Notes: generated by a model not told the origin, from the sequence alone. A stretch of 64,000 bases of DNA from Oscillatoria princeps RMCB-10 (GCA_019359235.1 JAHHHT010000012.1:67648-131647); one strand, 5' to 3'. Positions 941 to 27,267 are shown, counted from the stretch's first letter. Program-made: numbers and translations.

Positions 941-1012
941 CAGACAAATATGCTATTATCTTTACAAAGTTCCAGTAACTTTATAGCGTTTCTCATCCTT
1001 TGTGAGGTACTG

Positions 1013-1046
1013 AGAAACCCGGTTTCTTTAAGAAACCGGGTTTCTG
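1013..1046. repeat. Palindromic SDR of the GAAACCCGGTTTC family, present as a double copy.
   Basis: The sequence agaaacccggtttctttaagaaaccgggtttct is two abutting palindromes. The same family recurs at 14662-14695, 17953-17992 and 43505-43539, with single copies near 38046 and 56750. Confidence 0.85.
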
Positions 1047-1094
1047 GGCCATAGTTCATCCAACTGAGAGCCGCTATCTCTATTAAACGCTATT

Positions 1095-3746: not shown

Positions 3747-6700
3747 TTGGGGAATTTTACAGGATTAAATGTGGCACAGAATTGGCAAAATTTTTGGATA
3801 GCATTCCGTGAATCTTTAGGTTTTTTTGAATTTTTACCTCCAGGTAAAGGAGCGAAACGAATGATTGAGCATCTATCAGAACTGTTTTTAGATTTAGACT
3901 TCTACGCAGCCATAAACCCAGACTTGGCGCAAGCCGGACTGACCGATTCCGAGCATCTGTTAGAGCATTTAAAAACATCCGGACTAGCAGAAGGGCGACG
4001 ATTTTCCCCCTTTGTGGATTTAGACTTCTACGCAGCTGCGAACCCAGACTTAGCCAAAGCCGGTTTGACCGCTCCCGAGCAGTTGCTGGAGCACTTGCAA
4101 ACCATTGGGCTAAAACAAGGGCGGCGGTTTTCGCCTTTTGCTGACCTCAACTTCTACCGGAATAGCAACACCGATCTGGTTGACGCCGGTGTGACAGAAC
4201 CCGAACAGCTGTTAAAGCATTTGCAAACTTCTGGATTAAAGCAAGGGCGGCGCTTTTCACCGGCAGTCGATCTCAACTTCTACGTTGCTAACAACCCTGA
4301 CGCGGTGGCCGACTTCGCCAATGACAGGGAGAAAGTGTTCGATCACTTAGTCAGTGTTGGGGTAGCCGAAGGGCGCAAATTTGTGCGCAATTTAGATTTA
4401 AAGAATTACTTAGCGCTCAACCCAGATGTAGCTGCAGAGGTGGGTGGTTCTTTAGAAAAAGCATTAAACCACCTGCTCATTTCCGGATTGAAGGAACGGC
4501 GGCAGGGAGCACCGGCTCACCTGGCTGCAGAAAGCGTGCAGATTCAAATTGCGCAGCAGCTGTACGAAGCGATAGCCGCTTGGATACCTAACCCCTCAAA
4601 TACCCAACCGATTCTGCAATTGCTCTCACCTGATGTAATTTGGAACATCTCAGGAGATGCAAACCGCCTTCCATTTGCGGGACGGTTTTTGGGTGCGGCG
4701 GGAGTCCAGCAGTGTTTGACAGCCACAAGGCAGACGCTGTTTCAGAAACAGTTTGCGCCGCTGGAATTTATCCAGGATGGCGAGCGCGTCGCCGTGCGAA
4801 TTGCGCAAGTCGGCACAGCAATTGCCACTGGGCAAGATTTCCAGATGGATATTGCAGACCTGCTGGCAGTGCGCAGCGATGGCTTAATTTCTTCACTGAA
4901 CAGGCTATCAAACACCTACACCCTGAATCAGGCTCTGGCTGGCGCAACATCGGCACCGATTCCAGAAGACGATTCACTCACAGGAAAGCCGGCGGTTGCC
5001 GATAGCTCAGCCGATACAGAAGCATCGCGCCAAGTAGCGGTGGGAATGTGGAATGCCCTAATCAACGGCAGCGATCCGGAAAGCTTCAATCCAGCCAATC
5101 CCAAATCCTTTTTTGCCTTGTGTGCTACGGATGCAGTTTGGAGTTTTGCTGTTGGCAGCGATCCGGATTTGCTGCCCTATTCTGGAGCGGCTAAAGGTAC
5201 TGTCAACCCTGACGGCACCTTTGGTACTGTGCTCACAGAACTAATTTTGCCGCTGCAGGACTTAGTGCAAGCAGGCAGACTGACGATCGAAGAATCTTTT
5301 GCTGCAGGCAACCGGGTTGTGGTGCACTTAAAAGAGCTCGACGCCACAGTCAAAAAAACTGGCAACCGCTATGACCTGGACTTGATTAGTTGGATAGTGG
5401 TGGGGGGTGGCAAAGTTCAGTCAGTCCAAACCATCGTCGATACCAACCTTACCGTGCGGGCGCTACGACCGGGGGGCACTTACCCCTTGCCGCCTTTGCC
5501 CAGGCGCAGCCCACCCTACTTCGTGACCACCAGCTTGGCCACTAATCAAATTCTCACTTTCGACCAGCAAGGGAACTTCACCGGCATTTTGGGTGAGGCG
5601 AACCAAACTGACAGCGGTTTGGTCAATCCCAGCGGCATTACCTTCGGACCAGACGGCAACCTTTACGTTAACAGTCGGGGAAGCAATCAAATTCTCAGGT
5701 ACGACGGGATTTCTGGGAAGTTCCTGGGCGTCTTTGGCCAAGCAACCAACCTTGACAGCGGGCTGCTATTTCCCACCGGCATCAAATTCGGGCCAGACGG
5801 CCACCTGTACGCCGTTAGCGGGCGCTCCTCTCAAATTTTAAAGTACGACGGGTCAACTGGGCAGTTCCTCGGCGTGTTTGCGCAGCGGGACAACGGTTAT
5901 CCTGGCAACATCATAGTTGACGACGGCACTGTACCTGCAGACCGCCCGGATTTGACGGTCTTGCAGTTTGGCCCGGACGGCGACCTCTATGTGGGCAGCC
6001 TGTTGCAGGATGCTGACAGCAACCCAGACACTGGTGTTGGTGCCATTCTCAGGTACGCCGGTCCCCTCTCCACCAATCCCGGGGAATTCAAGGGCGTATT
6101 CGGGGAAGCTAATAACCTAGCGCCAACTTCCCTAGTATTCGGGCCCGACAAAAACCTCTACGTCAATGACGAGGGCGGTCAAGTTTTGGCGTTCGCCGGA
6201 CCCAACTCGGACAGTCCGGGCAAATTCAAGGGCGTCGTTGCTGACGTGAAAAAGGATTTTGCCGCTACTGGGGCAAAGTTCGCGGAGTTCATAGTTCTTG
6301 GCATGGAATTCGGGCCGGAGGGCCACCTGTACACGGGTAGCGCTGCCTTCGCCGTGCAAATGGGCGGCAATGTGCTGCCGGCGTTCTGCCAAATCAACAT
6401 CTACGCTCTGGAAAATTCGGACAGTCCCGGCAAGTACCTGGGCGTGTTTGGCGAGGCCAATACCAAAGACAGCGGGCTATTTATTCCCACTACCCCGATA
6501 TTTTCCCAGAATGCCTTTTTGCAACCGTTCTTTCTGGTGGGAACCAATACTGACCCGCAGGGAATCTTGGGCTCAGACGAAACAGATGCGCTGGCGGCTT
6601 ACGACCGAACGGGGAATTTTATTGGTTTCTTCAGTTTATTTCCCGGCAATGACAACCCGCTAAACGGCATCGGCGGCGTGGTTTTGGGAGCAAACGGCAA

Positions 6701-20116: not shown

Positions 20117-20863
20117 TTGATTTTTTGCATGGCTTCGAGTAAGTACCCCACTCCGGCGGCCTCGGCTGGGCCGCACCGGCATCGCTGTAGGTTATACAAC
20201 CTAGGACAGGTGCCCTACACTGCGGCTCGGGCGTGGCAGCAGTCACTGGTGGCGGAACGCCAGAACGCTCCCGACGAGTTAGAAGATGTCTTGATTTTGC
20301 TGGAACACCCGCCGGTATACACCCTGGGGCGGGGAGCCAGTCTGGAATTTCTCAAGTTCGACCCGAGCAGTGCCGGTGTGGGAGTGCACCGAGTTGAGCG
20401 CGGGGGTGAAGTCACCTACCACTGTCCGGGCCAGCTGGTGGGCTACCCGATTTTGAATCTGCAAAGGCACCGGCAAGACTTGCACTGGTATTTGCGCCAG
20501 CTGGAAGAAGTCTTGCTGGAGGTGCTGGAATTTTGGGGGCTGGAGGGTGAGCGGATTGCAGGCCAAACCGGCGTTTGGCTGGAGGGGCGAAAGGTGGCGG
20601 CTATCGGGATCAAAGTCAGCCGGTGGATTACCATGCACGGCTTTGCTTTAAATGTCTGTCCGGACTTAGAGGGATTTGAGCGCATTGTCCCTTGCGGGAT
20701 TGCCGACAAGCCGGTCGGCAGTTTGGCGCAGTTTGTGCCGGGAATCGAGATAGACTCGGTGCGCCGGGCAGTAGCTGACGCTTTTGCCCGAGTGTTTGAT
20801 GTCCAACTTGACCTTCAAGAGGGTTTCCCAGTCCTGTCAAATCCGGTTGCGGCGGATGCGTAA
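20117..20863 (+). CDS. lipB: Octanoyltransferase (lipoyl(octanoyl) transferase).
   Basis: The product has family motifs: [17 protein letters not shown]…[12 protein letters not shown]…[17 protein letters not shown]…[21 protein letters not shown]. Confidence 0.85.
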
Positions 20864-20963
20864 ACAATAGACTCAGCAGGTGCGCCCCCTCTGGGCGCGA
20901 CCCCGCATTCAGAAGAGGAGCCCGCTGGCTTATTGCCCGAGTGCCCGCAACCGGCAAGCCTTT

Positions 20964-21503
20964 TTAGAAGGGAATGTCATCGCCGTCTTGTTCCCTCCCG
21001 GGGGTACTGGGATCGTCGGGTGACTCCTGATAGGCGGAATAGGTTTGCGAGGCGGCAGGGGGGGATTGATACCTGGACTCCCCTGGTTCAGACTCAGCGG
21101 GTGTCTCTGGCCACCTTCCTGTGCCGGCTTGGTTGCGGGAGGTAAAGGAAACCACGTTACTGGGGGTGGGGGTTCGGGTGGCCTGCGCCCTGCCGGCATT
21201 CAATTCCAAGCTGTGTATCCGTTGAGCGGTTAATTCAGCGCGTTTTTCCTTGAATCCCTCGGGCCGGTCTACGGTATTCATACTCAAGCGGCCTTCTATC
21301 ACCACCCGATCTCCTTGGCGATAGCGATCGGAAATTTCTTGGGCGAGATTCCCCCATACCACCACCTTCAAGGTTTCCGGGGGGTCGTCATCCTTTGGCC
21401 CTGGAAACTGAACCAGCATTTCAGTAATCTGAGTTTGGTTGTCTGCCGTATAGCGCAGTTGCGGGTCTTGGACAATTTCCGCCATCAAAATGCAGCTGTT
21501 CAT
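20964..21503 (-). CDS. ssb: Single-stranded DNA-binding protein.
   Basis: The product has an OB fold (MNSCILMAEIVQDPQLRYT…VVWGNLAQ…), a Gly/Pro/Gln-rich linker and the C-terminal acidic tip DGDDIPF. Confidence 0.85.
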   Translation of the reverse strand: MNSCILMAEIVQDPQLRYTADNQTQITEMLVQFPGPKDDDPPETLKVVVWGNLAQEISDRYRQGDRVVIEGRLSMNTVDRPEGFKEKRAELTAQRIHSLELNAGRAQATRTPTPSNVVSFTSRNQAGTGRWPETPAESEPGESRYQSPPAASQTYSAYQESPDDPSTPGREQDGDDIPF

Positions 21504-21739
21504 CTGAAAAACCCGCTGGATACTCCGTCTCAATCCGATATTTAGACGGGGAGGAAAGCGGGGCGGGGTTTGTCGGTTTTACCGCTTTCCTTGTGTGCGT
21601 TCGTCTGCCCCTCGATCGCGGCGGCCTGGCAACCCACTGGCACTCAGCAGGACTGGCCTTGCGAGTCAGGCGGTTGCCTGTTTGGGTGCTGTGCTGGCTA
21701 ATAACCTAGGGAGCAGGCTCTTTTTTGGGCGGTTTTTCC

Positions 21740-24186
21740 ATCCTGGTTAGAGTCGATAGGGGCGTTTCCACCCCTACCTCTCCTTCAGAACCGGACGTGA
21801 AACTTTCGCTTCATCCGGCTCCTTGATACTTCCATCCTTGTTATGGACACGATTCAGGCCCGCCCCGTTTGGCATTCGAGCCATCGGATGCCGACTTTGT
21901 GTCGTGGCAATGTTTGTGTAGGAGTTGCACGTTCTCGTAGGTGTCCTTTCCACCTAACGTCCTAGGTTTGATGTGGTCAACTTCTACAATGTCTGTACTC
22001 GTAAAGTACAAGCCGCAGTGAAGGCATACACCCTTTTGTCGCTTGATTAGCGTTGCTACCCTTGTGGGAGTTTCAGGGTATTCCCCTCTTCGCTTGCTCC
22101 AGTACGCCCAGTTCCCGTCATACGGACTGGCCTCCCCTTTTACCTTGGTATGCCTTACGACTGGCGTACCGGAGTGGGCAAATAGTTCCAGTCCATCCTC
22201 GGTTCTGAAACACCAACTTTTTTCTCCTACTGGTTTCCAGTATTTCTCCTTGTTGATGCCCCCTCTCCCTCTGCGCCTCGCCCAGGCCCTCAGTTTTAGA
22301 TAAACTAGACTGTCCAGCTTACTGAAGGTTTCCTTGCTGGCAACCGTTGAGTAATAGTTTGACCACCCTCTGATAACCGGGTTCAGCTTGCTGATTAGCG
22401 CAGCCTGAGGGGCGGTCTTATGGACATCTATTACATCGGCAATCTTTTCCAGATGCTTCTGGATTTTGGCCTTTGAGGGTGTGATTAGTGTTACGAACCC
22501 CAGATTAATGCCGCTAGCATTCCACGCCGCACGGTAGCTTCCTACCTTGTACTGCCGCACGTGAAAACCCAAAAAGTCAAATCCGACGTTACCATCGACC
22601 GGCTCAAGGGTGTGAGTCAGTTTTGTTTTGCTGGGTTTCAGTTCCAATCCCATACCACCAAGCCACTTAGCGATTATCTCCTGGCATTTCTTGACTACTT
22701 CCAGATCCTCATGGATTATTACGAAGTCGTCAGCGTATCGGATTAGGCTGAGTGCGCTTCTTCTTTCCTTTTTCCCTAGCTTATAACCGCCGGGGGAATA
22801 GGCAATCAGCGTCTCAGCATACTGCTTGACTCTTTCTTCCATACCGTGTAAGGCGATGTTTGCCAGAAGAGGTGAAATTACTCCCCCTTGTGGTGTTCCT
22901 TCGTCGGTAGGGAATAGCTTACCTTGGTCACAGTACCCTGCCTTGAGCCACTGTTTTATCAGCCGTCTCATTGTGGGGTACGTGTCTATTTTGGAGAGTA
23001 GCGCCTTGTGGTCTATGCGGTCGAAACACTTAGCAATATCAGCGTCAAGCACATACTTGGCCTTTAGGCTGATGCTGGCAAAGATTGCCCCAATCGCATC
23101 GTGGCAGGAACGTCCTGGTCTGAAGCCATAACTGTTTGGCTCAAATTTTGCCTCCCATTCTGGCTAAGTGCGCTAATTTGACTAGCGCCTGAAGTGCGCG
23201 GTCGTAGATTGTGGGTATTCCTAATGGCCGCTTTTCGTCAGTTCCGGGTTTTGGAATCATTACCCGGCGGGTAGGTTTAACCTTACCCTTGAGACTCATG
23301 CGGTTTACCAGACTCACACGTTGCATCGGGGTCAGTGCCTTAACACCATCCACACCAGCCGTGTTTTTACCCTGGTTATCCTGCGTGACCCTGCGAACCG
23401 CTATGCACTTTGCCGACCAAGACCTAATCAGGGTCTTTTGAAGCCTGCGAACTGCTTTGACATCGCCACGCTCACTCGCTCGGAATATTCGCTTTTGCAG
23501 CTTGAAAGTTACCCTTTCTAGCTTGCGCCAGTTGAGGTCTTTCCATTCCACCGTCAGGTTGTCCCGCGTATTAGACATATCTACCGCTACTTGTTCAATT
23601 CCACTGGAATTACCGTGCATCTGTCAGCATATCCTTCACATTACTGAAGGCGTTCACTTTCTGATGCAATCCCCCCCCAGCCGTCATTCGCTAGCTACTT
23701 ACTGGTTCTCGACCTCACCAGAGGCGATTGGGGGTTACTTCGTTCCGATTACGCTTTGGTTGGGCCTTTAGCGTGATGCTCTCCACCGGGTTTTTTAGGC
23801 AGTGCTTGTGAGTCGGGTGTGGAACCGCTCCCGCCCTATCCTTGCCTTTTGGCTTGGTGTTGACCGATCCACATAAATGTCCCGGCCTAGCCGTTACACC
23901 ATCACTATTAACGATGGTTCAGACACATCTTTGCTTTCGCTACGCATGGGCTCTTGCTCGACAGTTACCGGATTCGGCTACCAGTAGTCTGCCTTTTGGC
24001 CCCGCTTTGACCCGTTGGATGCTACCCAATGGGCCAGGGGTCATGCTTTCACCGCTGCACCTGCGGGACAGGGCTGGACTCACGGAGTCTTCACCTGCAA
24101 ACGTAACCAGTTATCACTGGCTGTTCAAGCAGCCAGGCCAACCGTCCCTTGGGCCGTTGGCCCAATTTGGGTTGAACGAATCGCAC
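21740..24186 (-). mobile_element. Bacterial group II intron (~2.45 kb) with an RT/maturase/HNH IEP disrupted by a -1 frameshift.
   Basis: The 5' end reads GUGCGA, seen as tcgcac at 24181-24186 on the plus strand. Domain V reads GAGCCGGATGAAGCGAAAGTTTCACGTCCGGTTC on the minus strand (~21777-21810). The IEP N-terminus (23141..23620) runs RT0 through an ALQALVKLA motif. The IEP C-terminus (21841..23052, extendable to ~23140 in another frame) carries FEPNSYGFRPGRSCHDAI, YADD, maturase X, and an HNH segment CLHCG…VDHIKP…H. Confidence 0.85.
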
Positions 24187-24762
24187 CCACCCACATAATT
24201 TAGCTTTTCTTGTGGGGGTCTGACCAGTGGGCCTTTGCTTCCCCCCTGGCGGGCGCGTGCGGCAGCACCCACTTCCCACTCCGTTTATCAGCGTTTCCAG
24301 TAGCACTGTCCGGGATGAAACCGGCTCGCCAGCGAGCCGAAACACTGTCTTGCCTGACTTTTTCAAGCCCAAAACATTCGGCTTGCGGCTTTTTCATGTC
24401 CCTGTCCGGCGAGGGCTGGGGCTTACCACTTTAACTAAAAATATAACCTATTTTTCCCAGCTTTTAAAGAAGATAATATCCTCTAGAACTGCGTGTCTCA
24501 ACAAGGCTTTGGCAGTCTCCCGTTTAAGTTTTTGGTTTCAGACTGGTGAGCGTCTTACTTTCTTTTGCTCCTCCGCCCCAGGACAGCTTGGGCGTCAGAG
24601 TTGACAAGCGGGATTTTTTACAGTCAGGCTGGCAGCCAATAATGATTAGAGATTAGCTGTTGGCGAGCCTGCGGGCCCCGGCTCGCTACCTGCCTGCTGC
24701 GCCGGGGGGGCAACTGCTTTCGGAACCTTGCTCTTACGGCGTGGGAGCGGGTGCGCTGCAGG

Positions 24763-27267
24763 CTACTGCTGCTCTACAAACCTTTGAATGCGGTTGCGGT
24801 AATCCCTCAAGTGGTAATCCACCCAGTCCCCGTCATTACTGTTAGCGAAAATATGCACCAGCGGTTCGCCGGCATCGGGCAAAATTAACACCCAACTGTC
24901 GCTGCGCCGGTCGAATATCTTGACGCCATCCACTAACTCCAAGTTATCTGCCGGGTGAGTTTCTACGAGGTGGCGCATTAGGGAGCCCTTCACCGTCCAA
25001 GGGCAGCGCAGGGTGTGGGTGCGGTGGGAAACCCGGGGCAAGTCGGCGCGAAGTTGCGCCAGGGAGCGCTCCTGCAGCGTCAGCATCTCAATGATCTTCG
25101 CTATGCAGAACATGGCGTCAAACCCGGGATGCAGCTGCGGGAAAATAAAGCCCATCTCCCCACTGCCCCCGAGAACTACATTGGCATGGGTGTGAGAGGC
25201 TTCCATCAGGGCTGTGGGGTTGGCCTTGGTGCGAATCACTCTGCCGTCGTGGCGGCGGGCGATCTGCTCCACCGCACTGGAAGCGTGCACCGGCACCACC
25301 ACCGTTCCTCTGGGATTGGAGGTGAGAATCAGGTTGACCATCAGGGCGGTCAGGGTTTCGCCGCGAATCCCGTTGCCGGATTCATCCACTAAAATCATCA
25401 GCTCCCCGTGCGCCGACACCTGCACGCCAAAGGTGGCCCTCAGGGCCTCTACGACGTGACCGAGTTGCGCCAGCAGGCTCTCCCGCTCGTCTGTGGAGGG
25501 TGCCGTCTGGTTGAGACTGGCGTTGAGCACCACGGCGTCACAGCCATACTTGGCCAGCAGCTGCGGCAGCACCGCTCCAGAAACCGCATACACGTAGTCT
25601 ATTACAACTTTGGCGCGACTGTGGCGAATCGCTTCGATGTTGAGATTTTTTTCAAAGGCGGTGCTGTACAGATCCAGCACTTGGCTGGGGTAAGCCATAT
25701 TGCCGATTTCCTGGATCTGGGCCCGCCGGAAGTCTTCTTTAAAATAAGCCCCCTCAATTTTTTTCTCTAGGGATTTAGAGATATTAATTCCCTTGCCATC
25801 AAAAAATTCAATCAGAATCGAATCGTGCCGGTCGGGGTGGACGCGCACGTGGACGCCACCGGCCACCGACAGGGTGGGGACAACCGTGCGAGCGATGGGA
25901 ATTGCCGTCGATTCTAAGTTCTGAACGTGTGTCCCCACTGACATCAGCCCCGCAATCAGCGACCGGGTGACCATGCGGGAGATATTGCGCTGGTCGCGGG
26001 AAACGGTAACTTGGGAGCCCGGTTTCAAGGTCGAGCCGTATGCCGCTCCCAGTTTGACGGCGAATTCTGGGGTGATGTCGATATTTGCCAGTCCGGATAC
26101 GCCCCGCTGGCCAAACAGGTTGCGCTGCGCCGCTTGCCCCCAGATCAGGTTGATGTTCAGCGTCGCCCCAGATTCAATCTTTTTGCTGGGCCACACTCGC
26201 ACGTCTGGGCTGATTTGGGCTTCTTCTCCCACGCTGGAAAGGGCACCCACTACGGCTCCTTCTAAGACGTGGGCTCGCCGGTCTATCCGCACCCCTCTGG
26301 CGGTGACGCAGGCCCTCAGGTGGGCCTCTTCGCCGACGATCACCCCATTCCAGATGATCGGTCGCTTGATGTCTGCGTCAGCGCCAATCGTAACGTTGTC
26401 GCCAATTGAGGTTCCCGCGTCGATCTGCACCCTCGGGCCAATGCGGCAGTTGTGGCCGATCAGAACCGGGGTTTCTATTTTTGCGCTCGGATCTATATAT
26501 GTGTTCAGACCCACCCACAGCCCGGGGGAGCGCTCTTCGTAAGGGAATTCCAGTTTTACCTTGCCGTACAAGCCGTCGTACTGGGCGTCGCGGTAGGCGT
26601 CGAGGTGGCCAACATCGCACCAGTACCCCTCGGCCACGAAGCCGTACATGGGCTCGTCTTTTTCCAGCAGCAGGGGGAACAGGTCTTTGGAAAAGTCACA
26701 CTCTTTGTTTTCTGGCAGGTAGTCCAAGACTTCCGGTTCTAAGATGTAGATGCCGGTGTTGACTGTATCGGAAAAAATCTCGCTGGTCGATGGCTTTTCC
26801 AAAAACCGCCGAATTCGGCCATCTTTATCGGTAATCACGACGCCGAATTCTATCGGATTGGGGACGTGCGTCAAAACAATCGTCGCTTTGGAGCGCTTGT
26901 GCTTGTGAAAGGCAATGGCGGCGCTCAAATTAAAGTCGGTGATGCTGTCACCGCTAATCACCAGAAAGGTTTGGTCGAGCAGTTCGGCAATATTTTTGAC
27001 GCAGCCAGCCGTCCCCAGGGGCTGGTCTTCCTCCACGGCATAGGTCATCTGCACGCCGAAGTCGCTGCCGTCTTGGAAGTAGTCTCGCATCACGTCCGGC
27101 AGATAGTGCAGCGTGGCAATGATTTCTGTAATGTGGTGCCGTCTGAGAAGATTGATGATGTGCTCAGCAATGGGTCGATTCAAAATCGGCACCATCGGTT
27201 TGGGCAGATCGCAAGTCAGCGGTCTGAGCCGCGTCCCCGATCCTCCAGCCATCAGCACTGCTCGCAT
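24763..27267 (-). CDS. Bifunctional sugar-1-phosphate nucleotidyltransferase / phosphohexomutase.
   Basis: The N-terminus reads [18 protein letters not shown]…GTAG, a nucleotidyl transferase motif. The middle has a left-handed beta-helix. The C-terminal ~450 aa is an alpha-D-phosphohexomutase domain. Confidence 0.75.

Follow-up and report, generated by a model that had tools for sequence, protein, structure and literature searches.

The window, a stretch of 64,000 nucleotides (nt) of Oscillatoria princeps RMCB-10 (GCA_019359235.1, JAHHHT010000012.1:67648-131647), contains a complete group II intron on the minus strand, upstream of the single-stranded DNA-binding protein gene ssb. It is very probably a standard mobile intron of subgroup IIB at its cognate homing site, whose intron-encoded protein (IEP) was broken by a real and recent complex mutation, i.e. 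a retroelement at an early stage of decay. The parts of the intron are given below in transcriptional direction.

24186..21746, minus strand: complete group II intron, 2441 nt, subgroup IIB, IEP lineage putatively of chloroplast-like type
24186..24182, minus strand: 5' splice-site consensus GUGCG, read directly as GTGCG; the same in about 40 relatives
23620..23141, minus strand: N-terminal open reading frame (ORF) of the IEP, 159 aa, with RVT_N and the start of the reverse transcriptase (RT); Pfam PF13655, 1.2e-33; exact match to public protein P0121
23164..23172, minus strand: lesion, CGCACTTAG in place of the (T/C)(G/T)CTAGAG of intact orthologues, net +1 nt, from alignments with L001, L084, L085, L086 and L087
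23163..21841, minus strand: C-terminal frame of the IEP, 440 codons plus stop, with RVT_1 (8.5e-36), GIIM (maturase X, 6.7e-20) and HNH (5.7e-12)
21821..21788, minus strand: domain V, canonical hairpin of 34 nt with AGC triad, from the RF00029 alignment and the plastid D5 models
21783..21749, minus strand: domain VI with bulged branch-point A at 21753, 7 nt before the 3' end (..AAC), from the RF00029 structure alignment

The intron and the lesion in its reading frame

Domain IV does not hold a single uninterrupted ORF. The frames of the IEP are offset by +1 at 23164 and the N-terminal ORF stops at 23141; it ends with ...KLAHLARMGGKI, exactly as given in the preliminary description, and its out-of-frame tail reads ...HLARMGGKI. 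By frame arithmetic the C-terminal frame is +1 relative to the N-terminal one; therefore one base too many is present, or two too few. The preliminary description had assumed a loss of 1 nt. This is contradicted by the frame relation and by the alignment of orthologues, which show a complex mutation with net gain of 1 nt. The repair offered there, insertion of a G giving cttgagccagaa, leaves the frames unjoined by the same arithmetic.

Oscillatoria sp. Prado101 (L001), the metagenome contig L087 and two more metagenome lineages from JGI (L084/L085 and L086) carry the same intron at the same site. In all these copies the IEP ORF is intact, with 592-614 aa. At 23164-23173 the window reads GCGCACTTAG, where the intact orthologues have G(T/C)(G/T)CTAGAG. 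The sequences AAATTA GTG CTA GAG CCA (L084, L085, L086) and AAATTA GCT CTA GAG CCA (L001, L087) encode KL(V/A)LEP; compared with them, AAATTA GCG CAC TTA G CCA of the window has a net gain of 1 nt plus three to four substitutions. In a four-way alignment the changes specific to the window are +A, T>C, A>T and G>T (23169..23166), which amounts to ACTT in place of TAG. The intact-frame version of 23164-23172 is GTGCTAGAG. The lesion is located between RT motif 0 and the conserved LEPEWEAKFEPNSYGFRPGRS block.

The mutated octamer GCGCACTT (23173-23166, minus strand) exactly repeats an octamer at 23203-23196, 27 nt upstream. This identity suggests that the complex mutation was templated, by a strand or template switch. 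Between the two octamers a quasi-repeat, GCGCTAG / GTGCTAG, is located.

Outside the junction all family-invariant residues are kept, including YADD (IRYADDFVII) and the Cys and His of HNH. The Pfam matches to RVT_N, RVT_1, GIIM and HNH agree with the former assignment as HNH-type RT/maturase in two frames; the split lies near 23164. The joined IEP shares 96% and 89% identity with intact proteins in public databases, the closest of which bears the name group II intron RT/maturase. Among solved structures the best match is the T.el4h maturase/RT of Thermosynechococcus (6ME0, E=3.3e-101, residues 20-584). This best PDB relative and the matches of domain V to plastid D5 models are the proxies by which the IEP lineage was assigned to the chloroplast-like type, and the assignment is to be taken as probable.

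About 12 changes are unique to the window branch of the intron. They include the lesion, two non-coding homopolymer indels, an A>G change in exon-binding site 2 and five other substitutions. With so few window-specific changes and with YADD and the other invariant residues kept, the intron is indeed recently inactivated and otherwise intact, as had been proposed. The ratio of nonsynonymous to synonymous divergence (dN/dS) of the IEP was 0.18-0.26 for the window versus L001. Thus, for most of its existence the IEP was kept under purifying selection.

Regarding the boundaries, a scan with one genome per species, the source genome not among them, yielded 80 related loci, the nearest entry being an orthologue with 95% identity. 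In about 40 of the 80, BLAST with the intron ends located the termini, and these introns measure 2.40-2.54 kb. The termini GTGCGATTCG (5', from 24186) and CGACTCTAAC (3', to 21746) are common to these approximately 40 introns. Hence, of the formerly given span of 21740-24186 the start at 24186 stands, and the 3' end is moved from 21740 to 21746; the feature lies on the minus strand.

The Rfam model RF00029 for domains V and VI matched 21823..21746 (minus strand) over the full model (1-77) with 63.9 bits against a gathering score of 40 (E=3e-10). Its alignment shows a bulged GA, then CUCU-AAC on the 3' side of domain VI. Two plastid group II D5 models (ndhA and ndhB) also matched the domain V region, with 53 bits. 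Together with the directly read GTGCG, the RF00029 match bears out the group II intron with 5' GUGCG and canonical domains V and VI of the preliminary description. The covariance search proposed there was thus positive for domains V and VI; the group-II-D1D4 models of Rfam gave zero matches over 20800-25000, even at the permissive E<=1. Domain I is alignable across family members. A match of the Glutamine-II model inside the 5' end of the intron (18 bits, E=0.36) was regarded as chance.

For the exon-binding sites (EBS) and the intron-binding sites (IBS) of the exons, domain I was aligned for 18 family members occupying different sites. Two short loops are hypervariable in the family, each complementary to the 5' exon of its own copy.

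23822..23817, minus strand: EBS1, CCACAC; pairs with IBS1 GGGUGG at five of six positions
23908..23904, minus strand: EBS2, AUAGU, inside the loop UAAUAGUG (23910..23903); pairs with IBS2 AUUAU at five of five positions, one of them G.U
23781, minus strand: EBS3, G (intron nt 406); pairs with the first 3'-exon base
24192..24187, minus strand: IBS1, GGGTGG, 5' exon; complementary to EBS1
24199..24195, minus strand: IBS2, ATTAT, 5' exon; complementary to EBS2
21745, minus strand: IBS3, C, first 3'-exon base; pairs with EBS3 G at 23781

The loops of EBS1 and EBS2 covary with the exons in 17 family members. EBS1 is the variable loop GCGGTT-NNNNNN-CCGAC, whose sequence covaries family-wide with the six final exon nt. 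The EBS2 loop is complementary to exon positions of about -14 to -9 in relatives; the window-specific A>G at 23905 converts one EBS2-IBS2 pair to G.U. For EBS3, column nt 406 was complementary to position +1 of the 3' exon in 15 of 17 members, with wobble pairs in the other two, and the runner-up column reached 10/17. The presence of this single-nucleotide EBS3-IBS3 pair, rather than the delta-delta' pair of IIA, places the intron in subgroup IIB, and the pairing independently supports the 3' splice site. In the closest relatives (L084, L085 and L086) EBS1 is CCACCC, the perfect complement of GGGUGG. Thus, the insertion site upstream of ssb looks like a cognate homing site, not an accidental one. 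The target sequence around the insertion point is ...AAATTATGTGGGTGG|CAGGATGG, and the 5'-exon recognition block (24199..24187) is kept in all four lineages. The first automated EBS picks, CTGCCT and GTGTAA with several G.U pairs, were dropped, as both lie in conserved segments according to the family alignment.

Proposed consequences of the lesion and alternative explanations

The anatomy of the intron and the frameshift are demonstrated, as are the recurrence of the frameshift in separate assemblies and its absence from the orthologues. The following overall picture is proposed. A mobile IIB intron occupies its cognate homing site in the intergenic or leader region between the gene for a nucleotidyl-transferase/phosphomannomutase (NTP-transferase/PGM-PMM) fusion protein and ssb. 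No fewer than three related lineages have the same intron at this site, each with an intact ORF; in this strain the copy was broken by the change of TAG to ACTT (net +1 nt), possibly templated by the octamer 27 nt upstream. Without full-length IEP the copy would no longer retrohome alone, and protein-assisted splicing would probably be lost or reduced, because the N-terminal fragment of 159 aa cannot supply RT, maturase or endonuclease activity. ssb would still be translatable from its intact ORF downstream.

Several points weigh against this interpretation. Without a D1-D4 match, the proposed fold of domains I-IV is supported by family conservation and EBS covariation only. Some IIB introns self-splice, and we infer the loss of splicing and mobility from the sequence. 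A less closely related IEP, encoded at another place in the 8.6-Mb genome, could complement the copy. The evidence for the frameshift consists of assemblies rather than read-level data, and the three or four assemblies may share one culture; they exclude an error of assembly or sequencing, but a mutation acquired in the laboratory may be concerned.

Rather unlikely, but the best supported of the alternatives, is that the copy is still efficiently spliced, by itself or by an IEP acting in trans, and is maintained in the ssb leader as a splicing-only element, mobilisable in trans. The parts of the ribozyme look intact, with canonical domains V and VI and EBS/IBS pairings of 5/6, 5/5 and 1/1. Splicing and mobilisation in trans of ORF-less or degenerate introns by related IEPs were described for Thermosynechococcus elongatus (PMC2882425), and service in trans is described as the rule among bacterial introns without an ORF (PMC4424553). 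Mobilisation in trans, which the preliminary description had considered, is therefore possible in principle. However, group II IEPs normally prefer action in cis (PMC2882425), and neither the top 120 clusters nor the 90% cluster contained an intact paralogue with at least 77% identity from the 8.63-Mb contig. Furthermore, short-read contigs of Logan cross the intron unbroken, whereas multi-copy relatives elsewhere assemble as isolated contigs of 2.4-2.5 kb. The lack of a close intact paralogue among the matches listed and the unbroken Logan contigs suggest that the intron is single-copy in the genome. A distant helper IEP elsewhere in the genome, beyond the 64-kb window, is possible.

It is very improbable that in this strain the intron, which several Oscillatoria lineages keep at one position in the ssb leader, is heading to domestication as a cis element, splicing-only or unspliced, which modulates ssb expression, with maturase function from a host factor or from the C-terminal fragment. 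This fragment comprises 403 aa from the GTG at 23052 and spans RT3-7/X/HNH; such maturase activity would resemble that of MatK-like proteins in plastids.

There is hardly any likelihood that a programmed +1 ribosomal frameshift, or a protein split in two, keeps the IEP functional. The ORF overlap of 20 nt (23163..23144) contains GCC-AGA-A and AAA-A, types which can support low-level +1 slippage in some systems, and the C-terminal frame is otherwise pristine. But a shift would have to fall in the 20-nt stretch bounded by a TAG in the +1 frame (23166..23164) and a TGA in the 0 frame (23143..23141), and the shifted product would have part or all of L-E-P-E-W-E-A-K, invariant in an alignment of eight sequences, swapped for H-L-A-R-M-G-G-K. 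The four orthologous copies and all 120 relatives among the matches listed have a single ORF, and the split arrangement occurs in one lineage only, is about 12 mutations old and bears no sign of selection for it. The programmed frameshift formerly put forward is thus unlikely, as the orthologues are single ORFs and any +1 shift loses family-invariant residues.

An equally slight chance is left for a sequencing or assembly artefact with one intact ORF as the true gene, an option of the preliminary description that was rejected. Artefacts are the commonest source of isolated frameshifts in draft genomes, and two other window-specific indels of the intron lie in homopolymers (A-run at 23796, G-run near 23679). 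But the change at the junction is a four-column complex substitution plus insertion, not a homopolymer slip. The window is 100% identical over 3901 nt to the 8,634,711-bp contig Ga0558713_001 of JGI (sample 3300057162) and to two independently assembled Logan read sets (SRR11678154, SRR35645343). The exact ORFs of 159 aa and 403 aa are on record in NCBI, JGI/IMG and Logan, the identical C-terminal ORF of 403 aa being carried by a 240-kb contig of NCBI. In comparison with the Prado101 orthologue, the flanking host genes ssb and lipB carry only in-frame indels of 3 nt, and 1711 nt of the upstream gene are free of indels; single-base indels were found only in non-coding DNA and in the IEP. The frameshift is therefore real, an error of assembly or sequencing being very unlikely.

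The ssb leader and the probable history of the insertion

The former localisation of the intron, intergenic, directly upstream of ssb and on the same strand, was confirmed.

20964..21503 (ORF to 21533), minus strand: ssb, 179 aa from the likely ATG at 21503, acidic tail DDIPF, Pfam PF00436 8e-19
24501..24473, minus strand: candidate sigma-70-like promoter, TTGAGA-17-TATTAT, 10/12, from a consensus scan only; upstream of the 5' exon

The likely ATG of ssb is located 243 nt downstream of the intron end, and the exact protein is on record as single-stranded DNA-binding protein of Oscillatoria princeps RMCB-10. The uninterrupted ssb ORF is intact whether the intron is spliced or unspliced. The candidate promoter could possibly drive a transcript of intron and ssb leader. 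Its position upstream of the 5' exon and the conserved leader beside ssb indicate that the intron may be part of a long ssb leader. A -10-only promoter proximal to ssb, downstream of the intron, is also possible. Cyanobacteria are not known to have Rho; hence classical polarity on ssb is less likely. An obligatory effect of the intron on ssb transcription, through a need for splicing or through polarity, as formerly claimed, is not established, since the ssb ORF is untouched and a proximal promoter is possible.

About 100 nt before the ssb ATG (21504-21600, minus strand) are almost invariant in four lineages, and the remaining flank is only 82-85% identical. Within this segment a perfect inverted repeat of 9 bp (GGAAAGCGG...CCGCTTTCC) precedes a CCGTCT...AGACGG hairpin; the segment may be a regulatory leader element of ssb. 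Ligation of the exons (24196-24187 plus 21745-21666, minus strand) yields an ORF of 29 aa, MWVAGWKNRPKKSLLPRLLASTAPKQATA, whose frame is kept in three lineages. As a gene it is probably due to chance, with four nonsynonymous versus two synonymous changes and a C-terminus that varies. In the 5' flank, an ORF of 65 aa (24397..24200) was ruled out as a gene by five frame-breaking indels in the orthologue. The Prado101 orthologue carries an insertion of about 360 nt in the leader upstream of the intron (L001 2057-2417 versus window 24442-24447) with an ORF of 118 aa. A portion of about 105 nt of this insertion aligns with window 974-1078 (minus strand) at 83%, hinting at a small dispersed repeat or an element resembling a miniature inverted-repeat transposable element.

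The orthologous loci share their flanks with the window and have the same gene order, with the fusion gene upstream, then the intron, and ssb followed by lipB downstream. Identity to the window was 93% for L001 and L087, 96-97% for L084 and L085 and 98.4% for L086. The introns of L001, L084 and L087 comprise 2440 nt. A scan of metagenome contigs with the junction pattern yielded one contig, of the intact Prado101-like type, which is no measure of the copy number in the source genome. The values of synonymous divergence (dS) were as follows.

Window versus L001: IEP 0.075-0.088; lipB 0.155; NTP-transferase/PGM-PMM fusion 0.231; ssb 0.324
Window versus L084: IEP 0.014-0.019; NTP-transferase/PGM-PMM fusion 0.118; ssb 0.141

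Synonymous divergence of the intron is 2-8 times below that of the flanking host genes (IEP 0.014-0.088 versus 0.12-0.32). In non-coding DNA, identity was 97% in the intron versus 82-85% in the immediate flanks (21504-21745 and 24187-24447). The neighbourhood of the insertion site is nearly invariant over about 23 nt on the 5' side and about 30 nt on the 3' side. The intron is thus far less diverged than its surroundings, and the simplest interpretation would be recent homing into a conserved site, or exchange via recombination, among related strains after their divergence.

Comparison with known group II introns

The intron is a typical cyanobacterial IIB intron with an IEP probably of chloroplast-like type, and it matters little beyond correct annotation. 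Two public ORFs named RNA-directed DNA polymerase are to be corrected to halves of one pseudogenised IEP within a complete IIB intron. Furthermore, near-identical intact and broken copies at one homing site capture how the decay of a group II intron begins, and the low dS of the intron relative to the flanking genes points to recent horizontal homing among related Oscillatoria strains. Inactivated copies are described as the majority state of bacterial group II introns (PMC4424553).

The introns TeI3/TeI4 of T. elongatus (T.el4h ribonucleoprotein, PDB 6ME0/6MEC; chloroplast-like, IIB) resemble the window intron in their cyanobacterial host and in IIB-type exon recognition through EBS1, EBS2 and EBS3, and they provide the closest solved relative of its IEP. 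This family includes TeI4d with a frameshifted, degenerate IEP and ORF-less copies served in trans (PMC2882425). In contrast, the window intron appears single-copy and not proliferated, and no driver IEP was detected among the matches listed.

The intron also resembles those of Planktothrix, Microcoleus, Kamptonema and other Oscillatoriales, many of whose IEPs, publicly named group II intron reverse transcriptase/maturase, are 72-80% identical to the joined IEP. They share the RVT_N-RT-X-HNH architecture, identical termini and an alignable domain I with retargeted EBS loops. Unlike the window intron, these copies occupy many different sites, are often multi-copy (isolated 2.4-2.5-kb contigs) and have intact ORFs. 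Among the relatives, L040 has a second GTGCGATTCG beginning one base past the intron 3' end (about 5839-5865), i.e. tandem copies. In L047 (3428-8217) and L056 (657-5618) a distance of 4.8-4.9 kb separates the two intron termini, a sign of possible nested introns or twintrons.

Orthologous introns, at the same site and with the same genes, are those of the metagenome-assembled genome Prado101 (JALOOK010000068.1; IEP MCU0516100.1) and of the JGI metagenome contigs Ga0531548_0005290 and Ga0401902_000488, which are 96-98.6% identical. The IEPs of the Prado101 lineage (P0001, P0123 and P0127) are without a stop before domain V owing to a difference of 1 nt (window 21870; L001 about 4999-5095) and read through domains V and VI (...NKGGNIKEPDEAKVSRPVLKER), whereas the window and most relatives stop before domain V. 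The introns of Prado101 and of the two JGI contigs have an uninterrupted IEP; the window copy differs from them in the +1 complex lesion and the A>G change in EBS2.

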